From IMG/VR virus record IMGVR_UViG_3300021387_000688: 64,000 nucleotides of DNA. The stretch is one strand, 5' to 3'. A program made the position numbers and the translations under genes. Shown piece after piece: positions 2,493 through 36,185 of this stretch. This stretch comes from a virus (Duplodnaviria; Caudoviricetes). The notes under the pieces were generated by a model, which made no database searches, had not been told where the DNA came from, and saw only the letters and a program-made list of their open reading frames with translations. Position 1 is the first letter of the stretch, and every line of letters begins with the position of its first letter.

Positions 2493-2522
2493 ACCCCTCT
2501 CGTGAAAGAGGGGTTTCTTTTT
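2493..2522. terminator. Intrinsic terminator between convergent units
   Basis: AACCCCTCT/AGAGGGGTT hairpin followed by T tract. Confidence 0.7.
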
Positions 2523-3537
2523 ACTCTTGAATGTAAGTTGTGTTTCTTCCTGCGTGTTTAGCAGCGTATAGATATGAGTCTAATGTTTTTATATTATCTT
2601 CTAATGAAACTCCATCCTTCCAAAAACAACCTCCTACGGAAATAGTGAATGGAGCTTTTATACTATCTTCTACTCTTGAAAGAGTTAGTATTTTAACTCT
2701 TATATCTTCTGCAATTACTTTTAATTTGTTAAAGTTGGACATTCCTTTTAATACAATAATGAATTCTTCCCCACCGTATCGTATAATTAAATCACCATAC
2801 CTTATACAACTCTTTACAGTTTTAACTAAGAATCTTAAACTTTCATCCCCATTTAAGTGACCATGTTCGTCATTAATTTTTTTGAAGAAATCAATATCAA
2901 TCATTAAAAGACCAGAATCTTTTAAGTTATCTTTACTTAATGCACATCTGTTTTTACAACCGGTTAAAGGATCTATACAAGCTTGATTTTCCAATTTGTT
3001 GTTTATAGTTATCAACGCCTGGGTTGCAAAAGTAACTGAGAATAAAGTAAATACATAAGAAGAAGAGACACCGCCTAATATGAACATTAAGTTTCTTTCC
3101 ATATAATCACTTGGCATGTTAATATGGAAATGCACTTTAATTATTAGAATAACCATTGCAAAGAATAAAGGAAAGATTCCCATCACTGAAAGTATTACGT
3201 TCTTATATCCTACTAATCCAAAAGCCGAACCTAAGATAATCCAATATGTTATGAAAACTGCATCTCTACTTGTAAATAACATTGCTGGAAAAGATATAAA
3301 TGCAGTTACTAAAACTACTAAACAACTATATGCATAATACTTTTTAAGTTTAATCATAATTGCACCTGAAAGTACTATGAAAGTCCAACTAGTTACGTTA
3401 GCAATAAAGTTAACTAATGTAAGTAAGTCTAAATTAAACCCTCTCTGCATAATAATCGGAATCGCGAATCCGTTGGATACTGCACCACAAATTAAGAGAG
3501 TAATAGCTATTAGTTTATCAATATTTTTGTTTCCCAT
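2521..3537 (-). CDS. Membrane-bound diguanylate cyclase (GGDEF domain)
   Basis: Multiple N-terminal TM segments; DPLTG..NR, DIDFFKKINDEHGHLNGD, RYGGEEF, RxxD I-site. Confidence 0.92.
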   Translation of the reverse strand: MGNKNIDKLIAITLLICGAVSNGFAIPIIMQRGFNLDLLTLVNFIANVTSWTFIVLSGAIMIKLKKYYAYSCLVVLVTAFISFPAMLFTSRDAVFITYWIILGSAFGLVGYKNVILSVMGIFPLFFAMVILIIKVHFHINMPSDYMERNLMFILGGVSSSYVFTLFSVTFATQALITINNKLENQACIDPLTGCKNRCALSKDNLKDSGLLMIDIDFFKKINDEHGHLNGDESLRFLVKTVKSCIRYGDLIIRYGGEEFIIVLKGMSNFNKLKVIAEDIRVKILTLSRVEDSIKAPFTISVGGCFWKDGVSLEDNIKTLDSYLYAAKHAGRNTTYIQE

Positions 3538-3605: not shown

Positions 3606-4271
3606 ATGGCACACAACTTTCAAAAAATCTATGCACCGTTTGGTCGTAAGAATCCAAACGATCGTCTTGTAGACACATCAATTTATTCTCGGGGCTGGGT
3701 TCAGATGTTTTACGAAAACAATGTAAAGATGAAGGCATCTGAAAAGATTGACGGAACTTCTGTAGGTATTGTTTGGGATGGAGAAAGAATCTCCTTCATT
3801 GGACATACAGAAAAGTCTCAGTTTGCTCCTCGTTATCTTGAATATCTTAACAGCCGTTTTGGTACTCCTGAATTCGAATCTGTAGTAGAAGAGATTGCAG
3901 GTGACAAAAAGGTTACAATCTACGGTGAAGGTATCTCAAAGGATTACAATGTTCACTACGGTTTCCCAGATGGTGAATTTATCCTTTACGATATCCAGAA
4001 AGAAGATGGTACATTCTGGTGCCGCGAAGCTGTTGCAAGTGTAGCTACAAAACTTGGCATGATTATGCCTTGGGAAACAGATATGACTATTCAGGAAGCA
4101 ATCGACTTCGTAAAGACTCGTCCAGCATCTAAGCTTAATCCTGAAAACAAAATGGAAGGTTTGGTACTTCGTTCACCAATTGAACTTTACAGCGCTAATC
4201 ATTTTGAGCGCATTATTTGTAAAGTTAAGGTAAAGGATTTCGTAGACCTTAAGGATTACAGGACTGAGTAA
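3606..4271 (+). CDS. RNA ligase (Rnl2-like nucleotidyltransferase)
   Basis: Motif I EKIDGT, YGE, EGLVLR, C-terminal CKVK. Confidence 0.8.
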   Translation: MAHNFQKIYAPFGRKNPNDRLVDTSIYSRGWVQMFYENNVKMKASEKIDGTSVGIVWDGERISFIGHTEKSQFAPRYLEYLNSRFGTPEFESVVEEIAGDKKVTIYGEGISKDYNVHYGFPDGEFILYDIQKEDGTFWCREAVASVATKLGMIMPWETDMTIQEAIDFVKTRPASKLNPENKMEGLVLRSPIELYSANHFERIICKVKVKDFVDLKDYRTE

Positions 4272-6595: not shown

Positions 6596-7189
6596 ATGTT
6601 TTATCCTAATGGCAGTTATAGACTTGATCAGTTGATTAGAGATTTCGAAAGCGGGGACTTCGATATCTATCTTGAAAAGAATATAGAGACTCCAAAAGAT
6701 TGGGACCCATCTAAGGGATTTCCTAGAGGACCAAGAACCCTTATCAAAACAATGGATGAATTAAAAGACGCCGTTATAAAAGATATGGGAAAAGAATATA
6801 CAATTTGTATCGATACTCGCCCTTCTTATTTTGAAAAACATCCATATGAAGGAGAAGAGAAATCTTATATTAAAGAAATCTTCAAATGGGAATATTCTTC
6901 ACCTTGGGGAGAAAAGAGATGTTATGCAATTAGAGATAGTTCTTATCTTCCAGGATATGAACCTAAACATAAATCTCTTAGTCTTGATTGTTACGAAGAT
7001 GGATTCCAGGGAACTTGTTTCTCAATTGGTACTTGGGAAAGAGATAGTGAAGGTTATGAATTTAGGTCTGTAGGTAACAGACTTTTCAAATATGTAGATC
7101 TTAGGGACATTGTCATTCTTTGGAAGGCAATTCATGCAGCTAATAATTACTTGGAAGAAAGATTCAAGGAAGAAAAGGACGAAGACTAA
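6596..7189 (+). CDS. Hypothetical protein
   Basis: GGAGG RBS, 197 aa. Confidence 0.7.
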   Translation: MFYPNGSYRLDQLIRDFESGDFDIYLEKNIETPKDWDPSKGFPRGPRTLIKTMDELKDAVIKDMGKEYTICIDTRPSYFEKHPYEGEEKSYIKEIFKWEYSSPWGEKRCYAIRDSSYLPGYEPKHKSLSLDCYEDGFQGTCFSIGTWERDSEGYEFRSVGNRLFKYVDLRDIVILWKAIHAANNYLEERFKEEKDED

Positions 7190-7617
7190 TGAAAGTTTAC
7201 CTTAGTGGACCTATCTCGACTGATAAGGAACATTACAAAGAACATTTTGCAGCCGCAGAAAAGTATTTAACTGAAAAAGGTTATGAAGTAACAAACCCTG
7301 CCAAAGATGAATACGATGATGAAATCTATGAAAAAGGTCATACAGATAAATGGACTTTAGATGCCTGGCTCGATTATATGAAAAGAGATATCGAACTTAC
7401 TTCTAAACATGACGCCATTTGCCTTTTAGTAGGTTGGCGTGATAGTCCAGGTGCTATTATCGAACTCATGACTGCAAAGAAGTTTGGGCTTGAATTGATA
7501 GAAGAGTCCAAGTTTACTCCTTCTATAAAAAGAGAATACGAATACTATTCTAGAGGTAAGGAATGGGAAGTAATTGATATGCCTATAAAATCAAAAGGAA
7601 GAAAAAAGGAGATTTAA
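7189..7617 (+). CDS. DUF4406 / nucleoside 2-deoxyribosyltransferase-like protein
   Basis: KVYLSGPIS, NPA, DAICLL.GW..SPGA..E motifs. Confidence 0.75.
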   Translation: MKVYLSGPISTDKEHYKEHFAAAEKYLTEKGYEVTNPAKDEYDDEIYEKGHTDKWTLDAWLDYMKRDIELTSKHDAICLLVGWRDSPGAIIELMTAKKFGLELIEESKFTPSIKREYEYYSRGKEWEVIDMPIKSKGRKKEI

Positions 7618-7618
7618 G

Positions 7619-7897
7619 ATGCAGGATGCAACAAAAGAACCTAAAATGTTTAAGAAGAAACCGGTATCGATTCGGGCAATGAAATGGACCGGAAAGAACA
7701 TTGATGAGATTACAGTTTTTTCAAAAGGCGATGCTTTTTTGGACGGAGATGAACTTGTAATTAAAACATTGGAAGATGGTAAAACAGGAAAAGCAAAGCA
7801 TGTGGCTTCGGTAGGGGATTATATTATTGAAGGTGTACATGGAGAGTTTTATTTCTGTAAACCAGACATCTTTGAAGAAACTTACGAAGATGCATAA
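7619..7897 (+). CDS. Conserved phage protein (KKPV..GDYII.G..GEFY.CKPDIF family)
   Basis: Recognisable family motif. Confidence 0.7.
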   Translation: MQDATKEPKMFKKKPVSIRAMKWTGKNIDEITVFSKGDAFLDGDELVIKTLEDGKTGKAKHVASVGDYIIEGVHGEFYFCKPDIFEETYEDA

Positions 7898-7900
7898 AAA

Positions 7901-7946
7901 GAAAACATTTTAGAAAACTTAACCGTTTGCACTAACTATATTAAGA
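7901..7946 (+). promoter_or_regulatory. Conserved promoter box of tRNA array 1
   Basis: 42/46 nt identical to 10146-10191. Confidence 0.75.
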
Positions 7947-7968
7947 TATGTTAAAAGGAGACAGAAAT

Positions 7969-8088
7969 ATGATGTTTATATCAAACGAAACATTTGAAAC
8001 ACTGATTGTAACACAGAATCATATGTCTGGCCTTTTTTCAGGCTCGAAAGGGTTCCGTTCCCTTACACAGGGAGGAAAATCCGATTAG
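7969..8088 (+). CDS. Leader peptide 1 (39 aa; Gly/Ser/Leu/Gln/Arg-codon rich)
   Basis: AAGGAG RBS; MMFISNETFETLIVTQNHMSGLFSGSKGFRSLTQGGKSD; stop abuts antiterminator. Confidence 0.8.
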   Translation: MMFISNETFETLIVTQNHMSGLFSGSKGFRSLTQGGKSD

Positions 8089-8140
8089 GGGTTTCTTACA
8101 GTTAAGGAATTGTAAGGAACTCGAAAGAGTTCCTTTTTTT
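8089..8140 (+). terminator. Attenuator 1: antiterminator 8089-8122 versus terminator 8114-8140
   Basis: GGGTTTCTTACAGTT/AATTGTAAGGAACTC overlaps AAGGAACTC-GAAA-GAGTTCCTT-T tract. Confidence 0.85.
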
Positions 8141-8156
8141 ATTCCTTTTTAATTTT

Positions 8157-8230
8157 GCGGGTGTAACTCAGATGGCTAGAGTGTCGTCCTTCCAAGTCGA
8201 ATGTCAAGGGTTCGAATCCCTCCACCCGCT
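8157..8230 (+). tRNA. tRNA-Gly(TCC)
   Basis: Cloverleaf, loop CTTCCAA. Confidence 0.92.
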
Positions 8231-8236
8231 CTTTAT

Positions 8237-8308
8237 CGCGTAGTCATTCAGTGGCTAGGATCTCTGTCTTCCAAACAGGTGACGAGGGTTCGATTCCCTC
8301 CTGCGCGA
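8237..8308 (+). tRNA. tRNA-Gly(TCC)
   Basis: Cloverleaf, TCTGT-CTTCCAA-ACAGG. Confidence 0.88.
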
Positions 8309-8316
8309 CTATATAT

Positions 8317-8390
8317 GTCTCATTAGTGTTAGCGGCTTAGCACCCTAGTCCTCCAAACTGGGAGCATCGGTTCGAATCCGATATGGGGCT
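8317..8390 (+). tRNA. tRNA-Gly(TCC), C33
   Basis: Cloverleaf, loop CCTCCAA. Confidence 0.85.
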
Positions 8391-8393
8391 TGG

Positions 8394-8476
8394 TACATAA
8401 AGGTTTCGTTTAGAAGATTGCTGCACCTTTAAGCAGGCTGAAACGAATAGAAACTGAATCGAAAGATTCTAATGTA
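8394..8476 (+). ncRNA. Pseudoknotted spacer RNA
   Basis: TACAT/ATGTA, TTCGTTT/AAACGAA, loop ACCTTTA complementary to TAAAGGT, GAATC-GAAA-GATTC. Confidence 0.45.
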
Positions 8477-8502
8477 GGAGTAAGCATAAGAATCTTATGA
8501 AT

Positions 8503-8576
8503 GCCTCGGTACTCCAACTGGCAGAGAGGACGGACTTAGAATCCGTAAAGTGAGAGTTCGAATCTCTCTCGGGGCA
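8503..8576 (+). tRNA. tRNA-Leu(TAG), short variable loop
   Basis: ACGGA-CTTAGAA-TCCGT; 5-nt variable region. Confidence 0.88.
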
Positions 8577-8582
8577 AATTAT

Positions 8583-8667
8583 GGAGCCTGGCTAGGACGG
8601 TAATAGGTATGCCTGGAAAGCATATGGTCGCGAAAGCGCCTAAAGGGTTCGACCCCCTTAGACTCCG
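8583..8667 (+). tRNA. tRNA-Ser(GGA)
   Basis: TATGC-CTGGAAA-GCATA, long variable arm, G73. Confidence 0.88.
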
Positions 8668-8682
8668 TAGGAGGGAAATTAT

Positions 8683-8778
8683 ATGAAAGGTAAACTTCAC
8701 AAACTGTGGGTTAAGTTTGTAATAGGGATTGTTTATATTTATATAAAAATCACTAATATCTTTCATAAGAAAAAATAG
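8683..8778 (+). CDS. Small cationic/hydrophobic peptide (31 aa)
   Basis: AGGAGG RBS; MKGKLHKLWVKFVIGIVYIYIKITNIFHKKK. Confidence 0.5.
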   Translation: MKGKLHKLWVKFVIGIVYIYIKITNIFHKKK

Positions 8779-8785
8779 AATTTAT

Positions 8786-8870
8786 GGATCGTTAAGTTAG
8801 CGGCTATACAGGGTGACTTGAAATCACTTTACGTGGCAACACGGCGCAAGTTCGAGTCTTGCACGATCCG
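8786..8870 (+). tRNA. tRNA-Ser(TGA)
   Basis: GGTGA-CTTGAAA-TCACT, long variable arm, G73. Confidence 0.88.
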
Positions 8871-8885
8871 CTCTAATTAAAAAAG

Positions 8886-9069
8886 TTGGGTAAACCTCGA
8901 CCCAGTTGGATTCCTTCCTGAATAGGATTCAATGTTAAGGACTAGAGGAATTTACAGAAACTGCTTTAAGTAGCAAGTTCTCGAAAGATCGTTTATTCCC
9001 CCTCCCTAAAACGATTGAGTAGCTTTACGAGTGAATATAAGGGGTAGCTCTAAGTGGGTCAGGCCACTC
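8886..9069 (+). ncRNA. Putative multi-pseudoknot ncRNA
   Basis: Hairpins TTGGGT/ACCCAG, GATCGTTT/AAACGATT, AGTGG/CCACT with loop segments complementary to downstream GAGG, AAGGA and AGGGG. Confidence 0.4.
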
Positions 9070-9077
9070 CCTGTTAT

Positions 9078-9148
9078 GTACCTGTAGTATAACGGTAATA
9101 CGCGACCTTGCCAAGGTCGAGTCGAGGGTTCAACTCCCTTCAGGTGCT
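9078..9148 (+). tRNA. tRNA-Gly(GCC)
   Basis: CGACC-TTGCCAA-GGTCG. Confidence 0.92.
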
Positions 9149-9150
9149 CT

Positions 9151-9230
9151 AAATCAAAATGGCCAGGGAGCCCTAACGGATGCTGGGCGGCTTAATGATG
9201 TTACTGAATGGTGGTAACCCATTTTGATTT
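9151..9230 (+). ncRNA. Structured spacer RNA
   Basis: 12-bp closing stem AAATCAAAATGG/CCATTTTGATTT around CCAG/CTGG with GAGCC:GGCTT pseudoknot potential. Confidence 0.5.
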
Positions 9231-9238
9231 AATTTTAC

Positions 9239-9310
9239 TCCTCCGTGGTGTAATTGGTAACACGCGAGATTCTGGTTCTTGAATTCTGGGTTCGAGTCCT
9301 AGCGGAGGAA
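9239..9310 (+). tRNA. tRNA-Gln(CTG)
   Basis: CGAGA-TTCTGGT-TCTTG. Confidence 0.9.
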
Positions 9311-9358
9311 AGCACATTTGCCGAGGCCTACTAGCGAAACGAAGAGACGGCAATCTTG

Positions 9359-9440
9359 GAGGAGTAGTGAAAAATGGTTGTAGGGATAAGGAACTTCTGT
9401 TGCCGCGGAAAAACAAGAGTGGGTTCGATTCGCCACCCTC
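9359..9440 (+). pseudogene. Degenerate tRNA-like sequence
   Basis: T-arm-like GTGGGTTCGATTCGCCAC and TTCTG/CGGAA arm; D arm and acceptor defective. Confidence 0.35.
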
Positions 9441-9448
9441 GGAATTAT

Positions 9449-9522
9449 GGGATCGTAGCATAACTGGATAATGCACATGTCTACGAAACATGCGATTGGG
9501 AATTCGAATTTCCCCGATCCCA
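9449..9522 (+). tRNA. tRNA-Arg(ACG)
   Basis: CATGT-CTACGAA-ACATG. Confidence 0.9.
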
Positions 9523-9558
9523 CTATAAGGAGATTTGCTTATGAAGTTTCATTAGGAT

Positions 9559-9804
9559 ATGTATAGAAGATATCCTAAAAAACAAGATCACGGTACACGT
9601 GGATCAAAAAGCGAGTCATTGCTCTATTGGGGCAATTATAAGAAGGGTCTAAGATTATCTGCAAAGGAATATTTTAGACAATATAAGCATAGAGTTAAAC
9701 AAGCTCTAAAAGTAATTACTATTGAATGTACTGACGAAGAAGTTGAAGAATTCTATTTAAGGAGTCAGCATCGGGTTCAGGATCAATGGTATGAATTTGA
9801 TTAA
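9559..9804 (+). CDS. Small basic protein preceded by in-frame mini-ORF MKFH-TAG (9541-9555)
   Basis: 81 aa; the strong RBS sits in front of ATG 9541. Confidence 0.6.
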   Translation: MYRRYPKKQDHGTRGSKSESLLYWGNYKKGLRLSAKEYFRQYKHRVKQALKVITIECTDEEVEEFYLRSQHRVQDQWYEFD

Positions 9805-9807
9805 AGC

Positions 9808-9930
9808 ACTTGCGACCTAGTCAAGTATAAAAGTACATTAGGCGGCACTAATCGATCTGCCATAGAAATGATCGAGAGACCTTTGACAGTTAAAACGGAG
9901 AAGTCAATAGTAATATTGTTAAACTGTCAA
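9808..9930 (+). ncRNA. Pseudoknotted spacer RNA
   Basis: ACTTG/CAAGT hairpin with loop CCTAGT complementary to ATTAGG; TCGATC/GATCGA; TTGACAGTT/AACTGTCAA. Confidence 0.4.
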
Positions 9931-9936
9931 TATTAT

Positions 9937-10018
9937 GCTTCAGTGGTGGAATTGGTATGCACACCTGTTTAAGGGGCAGGCGCCGAAAGGATTGAGAGTT
10001 CGAATCTCTCCTGGAGCA
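9937..10018 (+). tRNA. tRNA-Leu(AAG)
   Basis: CCTGT-TTAAGGG-GCAGG, long variable arm, A73. Confidence 0.85.
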
Positions 10019-10028
10019 CTAATTTATA

Positions 10029-10156
10029 AAAATGTTTTCAAAGTGCCTAACGCAACACCGACGCGCTATGCGGGAGCGAGGAGTAAAATAAAGCAGTCCT
10101 ATGTAAGTAGGAAACAGGCAACGGTAACGATCCTGGTGGAATGTTGAAAACATTTT
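10029..10156 (+). ncRNA. Structured spacer RNA
   Basis: 13-bp closing stem AAAATGTTTTCAA/TTGAAAACATTTT, TGCCT/AGGCA, GTAA tetraloops. Confidence 0.5.
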
Positions 10157-10191
10157 AGAAAAATTAACAAGTTGCACTAACTATATTAAGA
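10146..10191 (+). promoter_or_regulatory. Conserved promoter box of tRNA array 2
   Basis: 42/46 nt identical to 7901-7946. Confidence 0.75.
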
Positions 10192-10247
10192 ATATAAGTT
10201 TTAAGTAACTTGTAAACAAAGACTTGATATAAAGGAGTATGTATATT

Positions 10248-10364
10248 ATGATGAACGTATTTAACACTACAACTAAAACAACTACAAAGCATAATCATAT
10301 GAATATGCATACATTCACAAACACAAATAAATTTTTCTTTAATAAGAAAAATGGAGTGAGTTAA
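10248..10364 (+). CDS. Leader peptide 2 (38 aa; Thr/Asn/Lys/Phe/Met/His rich)
   Basis: AAGGAG RBS; MMNVFNTTTKTTTKHNHMNMHTFTNTNKFFFNKKNGVS; stop lies inside the antiterminator. Confidence 0.85.
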   Translation: MMNVFNTTTKTTTKHNHMNMHTFTNTNKFFFNKKNGVS

Positions 10365-10423
10365 GTCTTTTAATTTTATCCGAATTTTAGAAGGCTTAAC
10401 TCGAAAGGGTTAAGCCTTTTTTT
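10358..10423 (+). terminator. Attenuator 2: antiterminator 10358-10402 versus terminator 10391-10423
   Basis: GAGTTAAGTCTTTTAA/TTAGAAGGCTTAACTC overlaps AAGGCTTAACTC-GAAA-GGGTTAAGCCTT-T tract. Confidence 0.85.
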
Positions 10424-10437
10424 ATTGGATTTTTTAT

Positions 10438-10523
10438 GCTACAGTCGCATAGTGGTTGATTGCACCGGATTTGTAATCCGGTAGGTTTATAGCCTCGCGG
10501 GGGTTCGAATCCCTCCTGTAGCT
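10438..10523 (+). tRNA. tRNA-Thr(TGT) with long variable arm
   Basis: CCGGA-TTTGTAA-TCCGG, GCU/AGC acceptor, AGGT/GCCT variable stem. Confidence 0.82.
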
Positions 10524-10526
10524 TAT

Positions 10527-10596
10527 AAAAGCACAAGTTGTTCCTATTTGCTGATGAAGCAATACACTGTTAATGTATTTGATACAACTCGCTTTT
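10527..10596 (+). ncRNA. Scaffold RNA copy 4 carrying an Asn(GTT) anticodon stem-loop
   Basis: AAAAGC-ACA-AGTTGT-TCCTATTT...AATACA-CTGTTAA-TGTATT...AT-ACAACT-C-GCTTTT. Confidence 0.75.
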
Positions 10597-10604
10597 AATT
10601 TTAT

Positions 10605-10679
10605 GGTGCCTATGGTGGAGTGGTCTAACACGCTTGACTGTGGATCAAGATTTCGTCGGTTCGAACCCGACTAGGTACC
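10605..10679 (+). tRNA. tRNA-His(GTG)
   Basis: G-1:C73, CTTGA-CTGTGGA-TCAAG. Confidence 0.92.
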
Positions 10680-10693
10680 CTCAAATGTAATTT

Positions 10694-10767
10694 GGTCCGT
10701 TAGCTCTAATGGTCAGAGCGGATGCCCGTTAAGCATATGGTTGCAGGTTCGAGTCCTGCACGGACCG
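10694..10767 (+). tRNA. tRNA-Asn(GTT), C33
   Basis: Loop CCGTTAA, G73. Confidence 0.88.
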
Positions 10768-10777
10768 TATATTTTAT

Positions 10778-10852
10778 GCTACGTTAGCTCTTAACGGCTA
10801 GAGCGCCTGACCTGTAATCAGGATGTTGGGGGTTCGAATCCCTCACGTAGCT
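10778..10852 (+). tRNA. tRNA-Thr(TGT), C33
   Basis: CCTGA-CCTGTAA-TCAGG. Confidence 0.88.
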
Positions 10853-10859
10853 TATTTAT

Positions 10860-10930
10860 CCGCAGGTCGCCTAATGGTAAGGCCTCTGACTGAAGATCAG
10901 AAGTTTGGGGTTCGATTCCCTGTCTGCGGG
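10860..10930 (+). tRNA. tRNA-Phe(GAA), G37/G73 variant
   Basis: TCTGA-CTGAAGA-TCAGA. Confidence 0.8.
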
Positions 10931-10935
10931 CTTAT

Positions 10936-11009
10936 GTTGAGGTAGCAAAGTTGGTCAATTGCGATGGACTGAAAATCCATTGATGTGAGTTCGATTCTCA
11001 CCCTCAACA
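10936..11009 (+). tRNA. tRNA-Phe(GAA)
   Basis: ATGGA-CTGAAAA-TCCAT. Confidence 0.9.
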
Positions 11010-11015
11010 ACGCAT

Positions 11016-11090
11016 GCTACTTTAGCTCAAATTGGTTAGAGCACGAGTTTCGTAAACTTGGGGTTACAAGTTCGAATCTTGTAAGTAGCT
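11016..11090 (+). tRNA. tRNA-Thr(CGT)
   Basis: CGAGT-TTCGTAA-ACTTG. Confidence 0.9.
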
Positions 11091-11108
11091 TGATAAGGAG
11101 ATTTTTTT

Positions 11109-11276
11109 ATGGATTGTGGAGCTCCAAGAATTGAAGGTCCAATGGCTAAAAAGGTTTATGAATACATGATTAATGAATCTGAAAAAGCCAAAGCCAATAA
11201 AGAATCTAGAGAGGAAAAACGAAAGAAACGTTTAAAGGAATTTGAAGAACTTATGAAGAAGAAACAGAGGGCTTAA
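11109..11276 (+). CDS. Small charged hypothetical protein (55 aa)
   Basis: AAGGAG RBS; MDCGAPRIEGPMAKK...KKKQRA. Confidence 0.6.
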   Translation: MDCGAPRIEGPMAKKVYEYMINESEKAKANKESREEKRKKRLKEFEELMKKKQRA

Positions 11277-11344
11277 CCTTCTATTCAGCCCATTGGAATT
11301 GAAGGTGCCCAGATTAGATGGAAAAGACATTTTCAATTTTTAAT

Positions 11345-11419
11345 GGACTACTAGCGCAACTTGGTTAGAGCACGTGCCTTTTAAGCATGGGGTTCTGGGT
11401 TCAAATCCCAGGTAGTTCA
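11345..11419 (+). tRNA. tRNA-Lys(TTT)
   Basis: CGTGC-CTTTTAA-GCATG. Confidence 0.9.
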
Positions 11420-11434
11420 CTTCCGATTTATTTC

Positions 11435-11507
11435 GGGCCCGTAGCTCAATTGGCAGAGCAATACACTTTTAATGTATGGGTCGACAGTTCGAATCTGTCC
11501 GGGCTCA
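11435..11507 (+). tRNA. tRNA-Lys(TTT)
   Basis: ATACA-CTTTTAA-TGTAT. Confidence 0.92.
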
Positions 11508-11521
11508 CTTCGATTTTATAT

Positions 11522-11596
11522 CGGCCTGTAGCGCAACTTGGTTAGAGCGAGTGCCTCTTAAGCATTAGGTTCTGGGTTCAAATCCCAGCAGGCTGA
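11522..11596 (+). tRNA. tRNA-Lys(CTT)
   Basis: AGTGC-CTCTTAA-GCATT. Confidence 0.9.
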
Positions 11597-11603
11597 CTTA
11601 TTT

Positions 11604-11682
11604 GGGCCTTTGTCAGAATGGGATTGGAACACACTTTTAATGTGTCGCGAAAGCAGAGCGGGTTCGATTCCCGCAGGGCTCA
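11604..11682 (+). tRNA. tRNA-Lys(TTT) with extended variable arm
   Basis: ACACA-CTTTTAA-TGTGT followed by GC-GAAA-GC arm. Confidence 0.8.
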
Positions 11683-11684
11683 AC

Positions 11685-11766
11685 GGGCCATTGATCGCAG
11701 AATGGGATTGCAACAGACTCTTAATCTGTTTCTTCGGAAGACTAGGTTCGATTCCTAGATGGCTCA
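11685..11766 (+). tRNA. tRNA-Lys(CTT) with extended variable arm
   Basis: ACAGA-CTCTTAA-TCTGT followed by TC-TTCG-GA arm; extra nt before D stem. Confidence 0.75.
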
Positions 11767-11827
11767 TCAAAAGTAAGTAGAGTTCTCGAGACAACGCTTA
11801 CTATATTTAATTTGAATTTGATATATG

Positions 11828-11900
11828 CAGCTTATAGCTCAACTTGGTAGAGCCGTGGCCACTTAATTACGGGTTGGAGGTTCAAATCCTTCTAAGCTGC
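11828..11900 (+). tRNA. tRNA-like RNA with aberrant anticodon arm (CTT-containing 8-nt loop)
   Basis: Good acceptor, D and T arms; CGTGG-CCACTTAA-TTACG. Confidence 0.6.
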
Positions 11901-11920
11901 CTTATACAAATATGATATAT

Positions 11921-11992
11921 GGGTCCTTCGTATATCGGTTAGTACTGCAGACTGTTAATCTGCGTGGGTAGGTTCGACTCCTACAGGACCCG
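11921..11992 (+). tRNA. tRNA-Asn(GTT)
   Basis: GCAGA-CTGTTAA-TCTGC, G73. Confidence 0.9.
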
Positions 11993-11999
11993 CTAAAAT

Positions 12000-12127
12000 A
12001 AAATTGCACAAGTTGTTCCTATTTTTTAGGCTCATAACCCGAAAGCGGTGGTTCGATTCCATCTCCCCTTGTCTTCGTAAGGGGATAGTGTAGTGGTAGC
12101 ACGGCGTATTATACAACTCGCAATTTT
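12000..12127 (+). ncRNA. Scaffold RNA copy 5 carrying a circularly permuted tRNA (Y RNA/YrlA-like topology)
   Basis: Order: CAT anticodon loop, T arm, acceptor TCCCCTT-loop-AAGGGGA, D arm, all inside the scaffold stem. Confidence 0.75.
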
Positions 12128-12131
12128 TTAT

Positions 12132-12204
12132 GCTGGGTAAGTTCATATGGTTGAACGCCGCCCTCATAAGGCGGATGTACGTGGTTCGAGTCCACGACTC
12201 AGTA
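12132..12204 (+). tRNA. tRNA-CAT (Met or Ile2)
   Basis: CCGCC-CTCATAA-GGCGG. Confidence 0.85.
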
Positions 12205-12210
12205 AATTAT

Positions 12211-12281
12211 GCTAGCTTCGTACAGTGGTAGTACACATGCATGGTAAGCATGTAATGAGGGTTCGATTCCCCCAGTTAGCT
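12211..12281 (+). tRNA. tRNA-Thr(GGT)
   Basis: CATGC-ATGGTAA-GCATG. Confidence 0.85.
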
Positions 12282-12283
12282 CT

Positions 12284-12343
12284 AATGCATAAAGTGTTCC
12301 TATTAAAAACTTGACTGAAAATCAATTGTATACACTTCGCATT
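12284..12343 (+). ncRNA. Scaffold RNA copy 6 carrying a Phe(GAA) anticodon stem-loop
   Basis: AATGC-ATA-AAGTGT-TCCTATT...TTGA-CTGAAAA-TCAA...TAT-ACACTT-C-GCATT (compensatory changes). Confidence 0.75.
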
Positions 12344-12382
12344 TTTCTATTCTTTTAAGGGGCCGGCGGCCCCTATTTTTAT

Positions 12383-12457
12383 GGTTGCGTAGCTCAACTG
12401 GATAGTAGCAATGGACTTCGAATCCATAGGTTGTAGGTTCAAATCCTATCGCAATCA
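12383..12457 (+). tRNA. tRNA-Arg(TCG)
   Basis: ATGGA-CTTCGAA-TCCAT. Confidence 0.88.
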
Positions 12458-12515
12458 AAACCTTTTCGAAAATCTGATTCCCGGATTCCGCTATATTATT
12501 ACTGAGGTACTTAAT

Positions 12516-13352
12516 ATGGCAAAAGAGAAATATTTCCGTTCACTTCCAGATCAGCTTTATCTTTACAAGAGATTTGATTCAGTTGGAAAAAAGGAAGGTT
12601 GTGAGTGCGATGAATGCGGGGCTTGGTTACAGAATATTGTAACTGTAGTAGGTTCTGTTGATCACTTGGAATATCATCTCGGCCTTACATGTTGTGAAAA
12701 ATCATCAAAGGGTATGAAGAATATCAACTTGGATGATAAAACAACTCAATATGTTAAGTACTGGAAGAAAAGATTAAATCAGCTTAAAAACTTCCGCAAG
12801 GATTTCGATAAGAAAATGGCTTACGGAAAGGTAATTGCAATTCTTGGTAGCTTCTATTATAACGTTCAAAAGAAAACCACTTCAATCGATTTTACTTTCC
12901 TCTATGAAGGGGGAGATTGGTGGCGCATGAATAACGACGTTTCAATCACAGGTTATTACAATAAAGTAAAAGAAACTTTTGCAGATGTTTGGGATGCGAT
13001 TGATTGGAAAGGATATGAAGGTTGTGCAGCCGCTGCAACTTCAAAAGAAGTTTGGGATATCCTCCATGACAATTCTCGTAACGTTCGTTTAAGAGATTTC
13101 AATAAAAGAACAGAAGAAGACTATCCCGAATGGGAACGTTATAACATAGTTAGAAATGCAATCCGCCAGTCTTTTGATTACAATAGCGGTTGGGGCGAAG
13201 GTAAAACTATTAAGCTTCCCGTTTGGTTCAACAAAGATGAATATGACGACATCTTTGATAAAGTACTTGCAAGTTATAATGGATATCAGAATCTGGATAA
13301 AACAACTTTCATCAATGGATACGATGCAGAAAAAATGTCCCGATACAACTAA
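12516..13352 (+). CDS. Hypothetical protein with CxxC..CC zinc-finger-like N-terminus
   Basis: GAGGT RBS at MAKEK; CDECG and CC motifs. Confidence 0.7.
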   Translation: MAKEKYFRSLPDQLYLYKRFDSVGKKEGCECDECGAWLQNIVTVVGSVDHLEYHLGLTCCEKSSKGMKNINLDDKTTQYVKYWKKRLNQLKNFRKDFDKKMAYGKVIAILGSFYYNVQKKTTSIDFTFLYEGGDWWRMNNDVSITGYYNKVKETFADVWDAIDWKGYEGCAAAATSKEVWDILHDNSRNVRLRDFNKRTEEDYPEWERYNIVRNAIRQSFDYNSGWGEGKTIKLPVWFNKDEYDDIFDKVLASYNGYQNLDKTTFINGYDAEKMSRYN

Positions 13353-36101: not shown

Positions 36102-36185
36102 GGGCTAGTCAGTTAACGGCTAGGCTCTACGTTAAAGCCGATAGTGGAAAGCGTAGGAATGTGGGTTCGAATCCCATCTAGTCCA
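36102..36185 (+). tRNA. tRNA-like RNA with about 18-nt expanded anticodon loop
   Basis: GGGCTAG/CTAGTCC acceptor, AGTT/GGCT D arm, GTGGG-TTCGAAT-CCCAT T arm, TACGT/GCGTA stem. Confidence 0.65.

Follow-up and report, generated by a model that had tools for sequence, protein, structure and literature searches.

Leader 1, a short open reading frame (ORF) in front of a transfer RNA (tRNA) gene array, array 1, in the phage record IMGVR_UViG_3300021387_000688, is probably a ribosome-mediated leader-peptide transcription attenuator, which gates array 1 and, as a product feedback, senses the supply of specific charged tRNA species. We analysed a stretch of 64,000 nucleotides (nt) of this record (the window), which is part of a large phage genome with 35% guanine plus cytosine (G+C). 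The codons of leader 1 follow the anticodons of array 1, two mutually exclusive RNA folds overlap behind its stop codon, and the same design was found again before a second array of this phage and in related phages.

We infer translation, stalling and regulation from sequence and folding, as follows. Transcription would start from a promoter box upstream of leader 1, and the 39-codon ORF would be translated as RNA polymerase advances. With fast reading, a ribosome at the stop codon TAG would cover positions 8089 to ~8100, so that no antiterminator could form, the terminator (8114-8135) would fold and the tRNA genes would stay off. With slow decoding, above all of CAG-GGA-GGA, the ribosome would lag and cover 8077-8082, and the free strand 8089-8103 would pair with 8108-8122 ahead of synthesis of the terminator's 3' arm, letting the polymerase enter the tRNA genes. 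With no ribosome nearby, a hairpin at 8077-8094 and the terminator would be favoured, which would make "off" the default. Since the Gly, Ser, Leu, Gln and Arg codons of the sensing half are all covered by the array, mostly by Watson-Crick pairing, the quantity sensed would be those charged tRNA species: their shortage would switch their own genes on and their accumulation would switch them off.

Codon choice in leader 1 and the anticodons of array 1

The initial annotation had listed 14 codons among the last 20 of leader 1 (8026-8085) as cognate to array 1, and exactly these were read from the sequence: TCT, GGC, CTT, TCA, GGC, TCG, GGG, CGT, TCC, CTT, CAG, GGA, GGA and TCC, with GGA-GGA at 8071-8076. 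Its account of the tRNA content of array 1 agreed with ARAGORN and Rfam. Cognate codons were counted with wobble rules in which G34 reads C and U, C34 reads G, U34 reads A and G, and A34 reads U and C, plus A for the anticodon ACG. Background usage came from 61 long ORFs of the window (16,033 codons), where 14.5% of the codons are cognate to array 1. Among 14,813 windows of 20 codons in genes none held more than 10 cognate codons, compared with 14 in leader 1. All six frames of the 64 kb held only three windows with 14; these, available as a count without positions, are taken to be leader 1's own overlapping windows. Dinucleotide shuffles of 8026-8085 gave a mean of 6.6 and a maximum of 13 cognate codons, 14 not being reached in 20,000 shuffles, and the other two frames of the same 60 nt hold 5 and 3. 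The higher G+C content of this segment (50% vs 35% in the window) is therefore not the explanation.

The match extends to the choice between synonyms. All 17 Gly, Ser, Leu, Gln and Arg codons of leader 1 are covered by array 1 anticodons (11.3 expected under synonymous randomisation, P ~2e-4), and 13/17 are exact Watson-Crick cognates (6.0 expected, P ~4.5e-4); without tRNA-Leu(AAG), 15/17 are covered (P ~0.0014, strict wobble). As the initial annotation had stated, leader 1 has no TTR, AGY, CAA or AGR codons (R, A or G; Y, C or T), although in the 61 ORFs TTR makes up 64% of Leu, AGY 31.5% of Ser, CAA 58% of Gln and AGR 70% of Arg codons. The commonest Gly codon, GGT, is absent, and the exact cognates GGC and GGA are present. 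Codon choice in leader 1 thus lies off the phage background and toward the array 1 anticodons; it is frame-specific and does not come from local base composition. The annotation had held that an isoacceptor-level match would fail if codon choice equalled the genome background; the comparison gave a difference at P ~2e-4 to 5e-4.

An attenuator tuned at the level of amino acids only, with the isoacceptor match as a by-product of the G+C-rich codons that hairpins A-C and the antiterminator require and of array 1's tRNAs for G+C-rich codon boxes, is unlikely in our judgement. The raised G+C content of the sensing half, the position of its codons in predicted hairpins and the fact that the cognate Leu, Gln and Arg codons are the G+C-richer synonyms speak for it. 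The shuffles and the alternative frames speak against it, as do the G+C-neutral Ser choice (six TCN codons, no AGY; N, any base) and the presence of GGC and GGA but not GGT, with 13/17 Watson-Crick matches. The isoacceptor tuning of leader 1 is statistically solid, yet it is confounded with constraints on RNA structure.

Only the last half of leader 1 is of the array 1 type. In codons 1-19, array 2, the second tRNA array of the phage, reads 11/19 and array 1 reads 3/19, so that leader 1 is a hybrid of an array-2-type first half and an array-1-type last half. Its Met-Met start and an Asn-His-Met motif in the middle resemble leader 2, the ORF before array 2, which suggests that leader 1 arose by duplication and subsequent rewriting of the half adjoining the switch.

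From this layout one could tentatively derive an isoacceptor-resolved sensor with two inputs, a reading that we consider possible but doubtful. The last codons would report those tRNAs that the phage can replace, i.e. Gly-UCC, Gln-CUG, Ser-GGA/UGA, Leu-UAG/AAG and Arg-ACG, and not amino-acid supply; depletion of host tRNAs, e.g. by anticodon nuclease cleavage, would be detected and answered with matching replacement genes. The first half would impose an array-2-first hierarchy: a shortage of array 2 tRNAs would cause an early stall and default termination, keeping array 1 off until array 2 is restored.

Predicted folding of the leader 1 switch

The perfect 15-base-pair (bp) hairpin formed by 8089-8103 and 8108-8122 has a calculated energy of -15.9 kcal/mol alone and -17.6 kcal/mol in the context 8089-8135. 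The terminator at 8114-8135 has -12.5 kcal/mol and shares 8114-8122 with the antiterminator, so that the two folds exclude each other. With 8101-8135 free (8089-8100 masked), the antiterminator is impossible and the terminator has -12.7 kcal/mol. With 8077-8135 free, the antiterminator state has -17.5 and the terminator state -19.7 kcal/mol (overall minimum -20.8 kcal/mol): once 8077-8088 is free as well, hairpin 8077-8094 forms, with an advantage of 2-3 kcal/mol for termination. By analogy, these folds would follow the three-state logic of the trp attenuator.

On the 3' side of the A-site codon, a ribosome covers ~12-13 nt. One that has TAG in its A site is accordingly modelled to cover 8089 to ~8100, where only the terminator could form, and one with its A site on 8068-8076 to leave the strand 8089-8103 free and to cover 8077-8082. 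The initial annotation had proposed that a ribosome on TAG masks the antiterminator strand, which the models support (terminator-pair probability 0.89-0.95). It had further proposed that stalling at GGA-GGA or earlier leaves the strand largely free; the modelled geometry gives this for CAG-GGA-GGA, and "earlier" applies only within about five codons (8065-8079). The footprint-constrained fold suggested there separated the two positions clearly in a scan of the whole transcript, with a mean terminator-pair probability of 0.89 at TAG and 0.01-0.07 at CAG-GGA-GGA, and less so when only the RNA 3' of the ribosome was folded (see below). These 3'-only folds and the explicit states given above were added because the whole-transcript equilibrium folds are distorted by pairing of the U run with the A-rich 5' end. 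GGA-GGA, at the modelled productive stall site, is matched by Gly-TCC, which with three genes is the most redundant tRNA of array 1.

GGA-GGA is at the same time a Shine-Dalgarno-like motif that could slow ribosomes whatever the tRNA supply, and this, together with a modest equilibrium contrast between the two folds, would fit a coupling other than stalling-relieved termination, such as Rho- or RNase-dependent control or a small-molecule-responsive, peptide-specific nascent-chain arrest. Such a coupling is highly improbable given that every unit, in this phage and in its relatives, has a canonical intrinsic terminator with a U run that an antiterminator exactly overlaps, and that the peptide sequence is not conserved.

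Nine codons past the TAG of leader 1, at the base of the terminator stem, lies an in-frame TAA (8113-8115). Suppression or reassignment of TAG would take the ribosome through the antiterminator, which it would open, to this second stop on the terminator's 5' arm. The window yielded no tRNA with the anticodon CTA.

Table 1. Positions in the window of the elements of leaders 1 and 2 and of their tRNA arrays
Feature	Position	Strand	Description
Promoter box 1	7901-7946	+	46-nt box, second copy upstream of leader 2
Shine-Dalgarno AAGGAG	7955-7960	+	8 nt before ATG; read from the sequence
Leader 1 ORF	7969-8088	+	ATG 7969-7971, 39 codons, TAG 8086-8088
Leader 1 codons 1-19	7969-8025	+	array-2-type: Met, Phe, Asn, Thr, His; paralogous to the leader 2 start
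Leader 1 last 20 codons	8026-8085	+	array 1 reads 14, array 2 reads 5, neither reads GAT
Hairpin B, within the ORF	8054-8076	+	-7.6 kcal/mol
Hairpin C, candidate anti-antiterminator	8077-8094	+	-4.5 kcal/mol; sequesters 8089-8094
Putative productive stall window	8065-8079	+	ACA CAG GGA GGA AAA; from footprint model, geometry and energies
Antiterminator	8089-8122	+	8089-8103 pairs with 8108-8122, 15 bp, 1 nt after TAG
Intrinsic terminator	8114-8140	+	9-bp stem with GAAA loop (8114-8135), U run to 8140
Array 1	8157-9523	+	Gly-TCC x3 (starts 8157, 8237, 8317), Leu-TAG (8502), Ser-GGA (8582), Ser-TGA (8786), Gly-GCC (9078), Gln-CTG (9239), Arg-ACG (9449)
tRNA-Leu(AAG)	9937-10019	+	counted with array 1; behind an 81-codon ORF (9559-9804) and a promoter-like site (9883-9911)
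Promoter box 2	10146-10191	+	copy of box 1
Leader 2 ORF	10248-10364	+	38 codons, 34 of them Thr, Asn, Lys, Phe, Met or His
Leader 2 switch	10358-10420	+	antiterminator 10358-10371/10389-10402; terminator 10389-10420
Array 2	10438-12282	+	Thr x4, His, Asn x2, Phe x2, Lys x5, Met, one tRNA with an odd anticodon loop

Leader 2, strain variation and related phages

The elements of the two units are listed in Table 1. Box 1 contains a putative promoter with a -35-like TTAACC (7919-7924) and a -10-like TAAGAT (7942-7947) separated by a 17-nt spacer. It is identical to box 2 at 42/46 positions (by eye) and is kept in 10/10 strain loci. The 20-mer 7927-7946 occurs at only two sites of the window (7927 and 10172), and two matches were obtained in 0/100 shuffles; this core had no exact match in IMG/VR or the metagenome collection. 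Leader 1 was called as a gene in some public assemblies too. The first tRNA gene of array 1 follows the terminator after 16 nt, and no plus-strand terminator was found between 8135 and 10389.

Leader 2, like leader 1 and leaders A-D of the related phages described below, is a short ORF with a ribosome-binding site. Array 2 reads 34/38 of its codons and array 1 reads 1/38, and no 38-codon window of a gene goes above 22 for array 2. With the antiterminator strand free, the antiterminator state has -24.9 and the terminator state -19.8 kcal/mol; with no ribosome, the values are -24.7 and -26.0 kcal/mol. The leader 2 switch is thus predicted to be clear-cut and cleaner than that of leader 1. The site equivalent to the stall site of leader 1 is AAT-AAG, and the array behind it has five Lys and two Asn genes.

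Array 2 ends at a strong, G+C-rich terminator (12358-12374), which sits between tRNA-Thr(GGT) and tRNA-Arg(TCG). The latter thus lies behind the end of array 2 (12358-12458), and no leader 2 codon matches it. The five tRNA-Lys genes are immediately preceded by a 55-codon Lys/Glu-rich ORF (11109-11276), which no terminator follows and which is called as a gene in strain assemblies as well. The tRNA-like gene at 11828-11901 has the four-letter anticodon ACTT (ARAGORN) and is absent in a second haplotype (L180, L184).

In ten strain loci, leader 1 and its switch differ only by Ile4Thr, Met19Ile (in a single locus) and two changes that are synonymous. Leader 2 has 35-39 codons, owing to insertions and deletions in its N-terminal half, which still consists of Thr, Asn, Met, Lys and His. 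Strain loci have TGA in place of the leader 2 stop codon TAA, so that one antiterminator pair is G-U and no longer A-U. In the second haplotype this half is made of AAC-ACA-ACA-ATG repeats, whose copy number depends on the strain (35, 38 or 39 codons; L180:12589-12708, L183:11508-11615).

A strain diverged by ~6% is known from one RNA-library contig. Its neighbouring 92-codon gene shows 12 synonymous and no replacement changes, whereas seven residues of leader 1 are replaced. Five of these lie in its N-terminal half and give Lys, Thr, Phe, Thr and His; the other two, in the C-terminal half, change Gly to Asn and Phe to Ser. This Ser is encoded by TCA or TCT and not by AGY, again a TCN codon, which also counts against tuning at the amino-acid level only; 14/20 codons are still cognate. 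Among the differences listed for this strain, none falls in 8068-8171, against ~6 expected (P ~0.002, a provisional value). The peptide sequence appears free to change, and composition and switch do not appear so. Compared with the window at 8404-9150, the diverged strain has a longer stretch in place of the one with Leu-TAG, an insertion of ~860 nt near Ser-TGA and a different 72 nt in place of Gly-GCC; strains therefore differ in array content, with the sensing half of leader 1 kept. Contigs assembled from RNA libraries bridge the terminator and start near 7962-7969; DNA carry-over is possible, and they were not counted for regulation. An apparent 1.8-kb skip in these data, joining 8139 to 9942, was rejected as a deletion, as it comes from a co-occurring A-type phage.

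Relatives were reached via the terminator motif in IMG/VR and in metagenome contigs. Nearly the same terminator as that of leader 1 precedes tRNA arrays in related phages, and the leader variants A, B and C (46-52 codons) each stand directly before such an array. A complete IMG/VR phage of 300,878 bp carries leader A and, before a second array, leader D, with complementary composition. Leader A is read by its own array at 39/48 codons and by the other array of the same phage at 10/48. For leader D the values are 31/41 (35/41 with extended U34 wobble) and 10/41. The match between leader and own array is thus present in four units of two phages and lost on swapping the arrays. Leader D has three AGA, three CAA and four TTR codons together with Arg-TCT, Gln-TTG and Leu-CAA/TAA, a synonymous choice opposite to that of leader 1; this pairing of opposite synonyms with opposite anticodons is hard to reconcile with tuning for amino acids only. 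Variant C has both tRNA Gln-CTG and four CAG codons, and variants A and B have neither. In the relatives, the final codons of the ORF hold the antiterminator strand, which sits at the stop or a few codons ahead of it. Both strands have changed between variants with pairing kept: GCUUGGGU/ACCCAAGC, GCUUGGGA/UCCCAAGC and GCUUGAGGGU/ACCUUCAAGC. With strict wobble, the isoacceptor test gave P=0.0055 for A; in the relatives as a group, the codons point to a strong match for amino acids and a weaker one for isoacceptors. A second large relative (247,923 bp) has one candidate of ORF plus terminator before its array, which covers nearly all amino acids and thus has no discriminating power. Leader D was searched for in four further phage records and through its terminator, with an identical copy as the only match.

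Both large relatives carry a tRNA with the anticodon TTA, reading TAA (L049:7690-7762; L051, reverse strand). In the L049 phage, leader A ends in tandem TAA-TAG and leader D in TGA-TAA. B-type leaders begin ~30 nt after another tRNA gene with no promoter box between (L058:2905-3119, L056, L062 and other B-type loci), a layout that would place the attenuator inside a tRNA transcription unit.

Alternatively, the small ORFs might encode micro-proteins or be untranslated, the hairpin might be an ordinary terminator or processing signal, and the tRNAs might be transcribed from other promoters, the likeness to an attenuator being coincidental. Leaders A, B and C do share a conserved peptide frame with a membrane-like composition rich in Ala, Gly, Ser, Leu and Phe, a promoter-like site lies inside array 1, and in other phages the GAAA-loop terminator also stands behind ordinary protein genes. 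In metagenomes, many exact matches to the terminator follow ordinary genes, and a broad pattern of the terminator core gave 62 further matches, none with a tRNA after it, which were set aside as ordinary terminators. We nevertheless regard this alternative as very unlikely. Each leader is separated from the upstream gene by a copy of the promoter box, so that the terminator cannot merely end the upstream operon. Furthermore, the peptides of leaders 1 and 2 vary between strains and the neighbouring gene does not, with composition kept; the match to the own array in the four units fails on swapping; and the antiterminator strand abuts or overlaps the stop codon in every unit.

Several results weigh against leader 1 as an attenuator of array 1. 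With 8089-8135 free, the antiterminator and terminator states are isoenergetic (-17.6 vs -17.5 kcal/mol) and separated by a modelled barrier of ~9 kcal/mol, and the equilibrium contrast is modest. The outcome of the switch would thus depend on folding order, the antiterminator being transcribed first. When only the RNA 3' of the ribosome is folded, the terminator-pair probability is 0.95 at TAG and still 0.73-0.79 at the stall site, because nine pairs in the lower part of the antiterminator are compatible with a terminator core of six pairs. A stall would be clearly productive at only ~5/20 sensing codons, two of which (ACA, AAA) are array 2 codons. Taken as a whole, leader 1 matches array 1 (17/39) no better than array 2 (16/39). 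Its codons also lie within hairpins, and part of the synonymous choice may serve RNA structure. tRNA-Leu(AAG) may have its own promoter. In the relatives, the isoacceptor test with strict wobble is weak for D (P=0.18), B (0.32) and C (0.08), as expected from tuning for amino acids only, partly because those arrays already cover most synonyms; their leaders also contain uncovered TCT, GCT, ACT, CGT and CTC codons. Finally, the assembled RNA contigs show neither 3' ends nor levels, and the attenuator reading rests on sequence and models.

Known attenuators and genome setting

Multivalent leader-peptide attenuators are known from enterobacteria, as in ilvGMEDA with Ile, Leu and Val codons and thr with Thr and Ile codons; trpL, hisL, leuL and pheL are further leaders of this kind. 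All sequence-level features that define an attenuator are present in leader 1. Like these leaders, it has a putative promoter, a short ORF rich in regulatory codons for several amino acids, an intrinsic terminator, an overlapping antiterminator that would be masked by a ribosome at the stop codon, and an upstream candidate anti-antiterminator hairpin. Unlike them, it would control phage tRNA genes and not biosynthetic enzymes, its codons match the anticodons of the product, which would give feedback on tRNA supply, and it would sense five amino acids through about ten isoacceptors in 20 codons. In the leader of the leu operon, four rare CUA codons set sensitivity by codon identity and not only by amino acid. 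Leader 1 resembles it in a synonymous codon choice that would be tuned to particular isoacceptors; the output there is Leu biosynthesis, whereas the codons of leader 1 match the tRNA genes that are the output. The pheM leader controls pheST, which encodes phenylalanyl-tRNA synthetase, and is similar in that a component of the translation apparatus would be attenuated by a leader peptide, but its target is a synthetase with one amino acid as input, and the targets of leader 1 would be the tRNAs themselves. T-box riboswitches bind uncharged tRNA directly and do not need translation. Like them, leader 1 would respond to specific tRNA species, read via the anticodon, by transcription attenuation; unlike them, it has no T-box or specifier architecture, and none was detected with Rfam. 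A search with the curated leader families and the T-box of Rfam returned only tRNAs at gathering score; the best match for a leader was Phe_leader with 17.8 bits (gathering score 55, E = 1.4), and the same leader-family search of leader 2 found nothing.

Phage tRNA genes are usually discussed as constitutive supplements to codon usage or as replacements for host tRNAs destroyed by nucleases, and to our knowledge the control of their expression is rarely addressed. What sets leader 1 apart from classical attenuators is the phage tRNA gene target and the correspondence between sensor codons and product anticodons. Phage tRNAs are treated in the literature as substitutes for host tRNAs that defence nucleases have depleted (PMC10264068, PMC11555353, PMC11464382). 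A term search of PMC10264068 gave no mention of attenuators, leaders, terminators or promoters, and full-text literature searches found no description of leader-peptide attenuation of tRNA genes. The replacement idea would give a rationale for the need of particular isoacceptors on demand. If leader 1 acts as proposed, it would form a self-tuning loop in which a tRNA set is made only while its codons are read slowly. The match at isoacceptor level separates sensing of tRNA species from sensing of amino acids and so opens the idea to a direct test. At least two phage lineages from the animal gut samples examined share the design, with codon sets that differ, which may point to a general principle of large phages and to a ready-made, programmable tRNA-responsive switch.

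DNA matching the window was found in sheep and other animal gut metagenomes, and the same region is contained in public assemblies of 389-398 kb. A near-DNA search of GenBank phages with 7000-13000 of the window matched only a 58-nt tRNA-Gly stretch, and tblastn with a 482-aa (amino acid) protein of the window gave no match. The 92-aa protein encoded upstream has relatives, none with adjoining tRNA genes; for a second neighbouring protein no relatives were detected. The window contains 29 tRNA genes, all on the plus strand (ARAGORN, Rfam). A further weak tRNA match at 36102-36185 (33.6 bits), far from the arrays, was reported by Rfam only and not by ARAGORN. Just upstream of the tRNA island lie genes for a GGDEF-domain protein (2521-3537, minus strand) and an RNA-ligase-family protein (3606-4271, plus strand), with Pfam labels taken from the strain loci.

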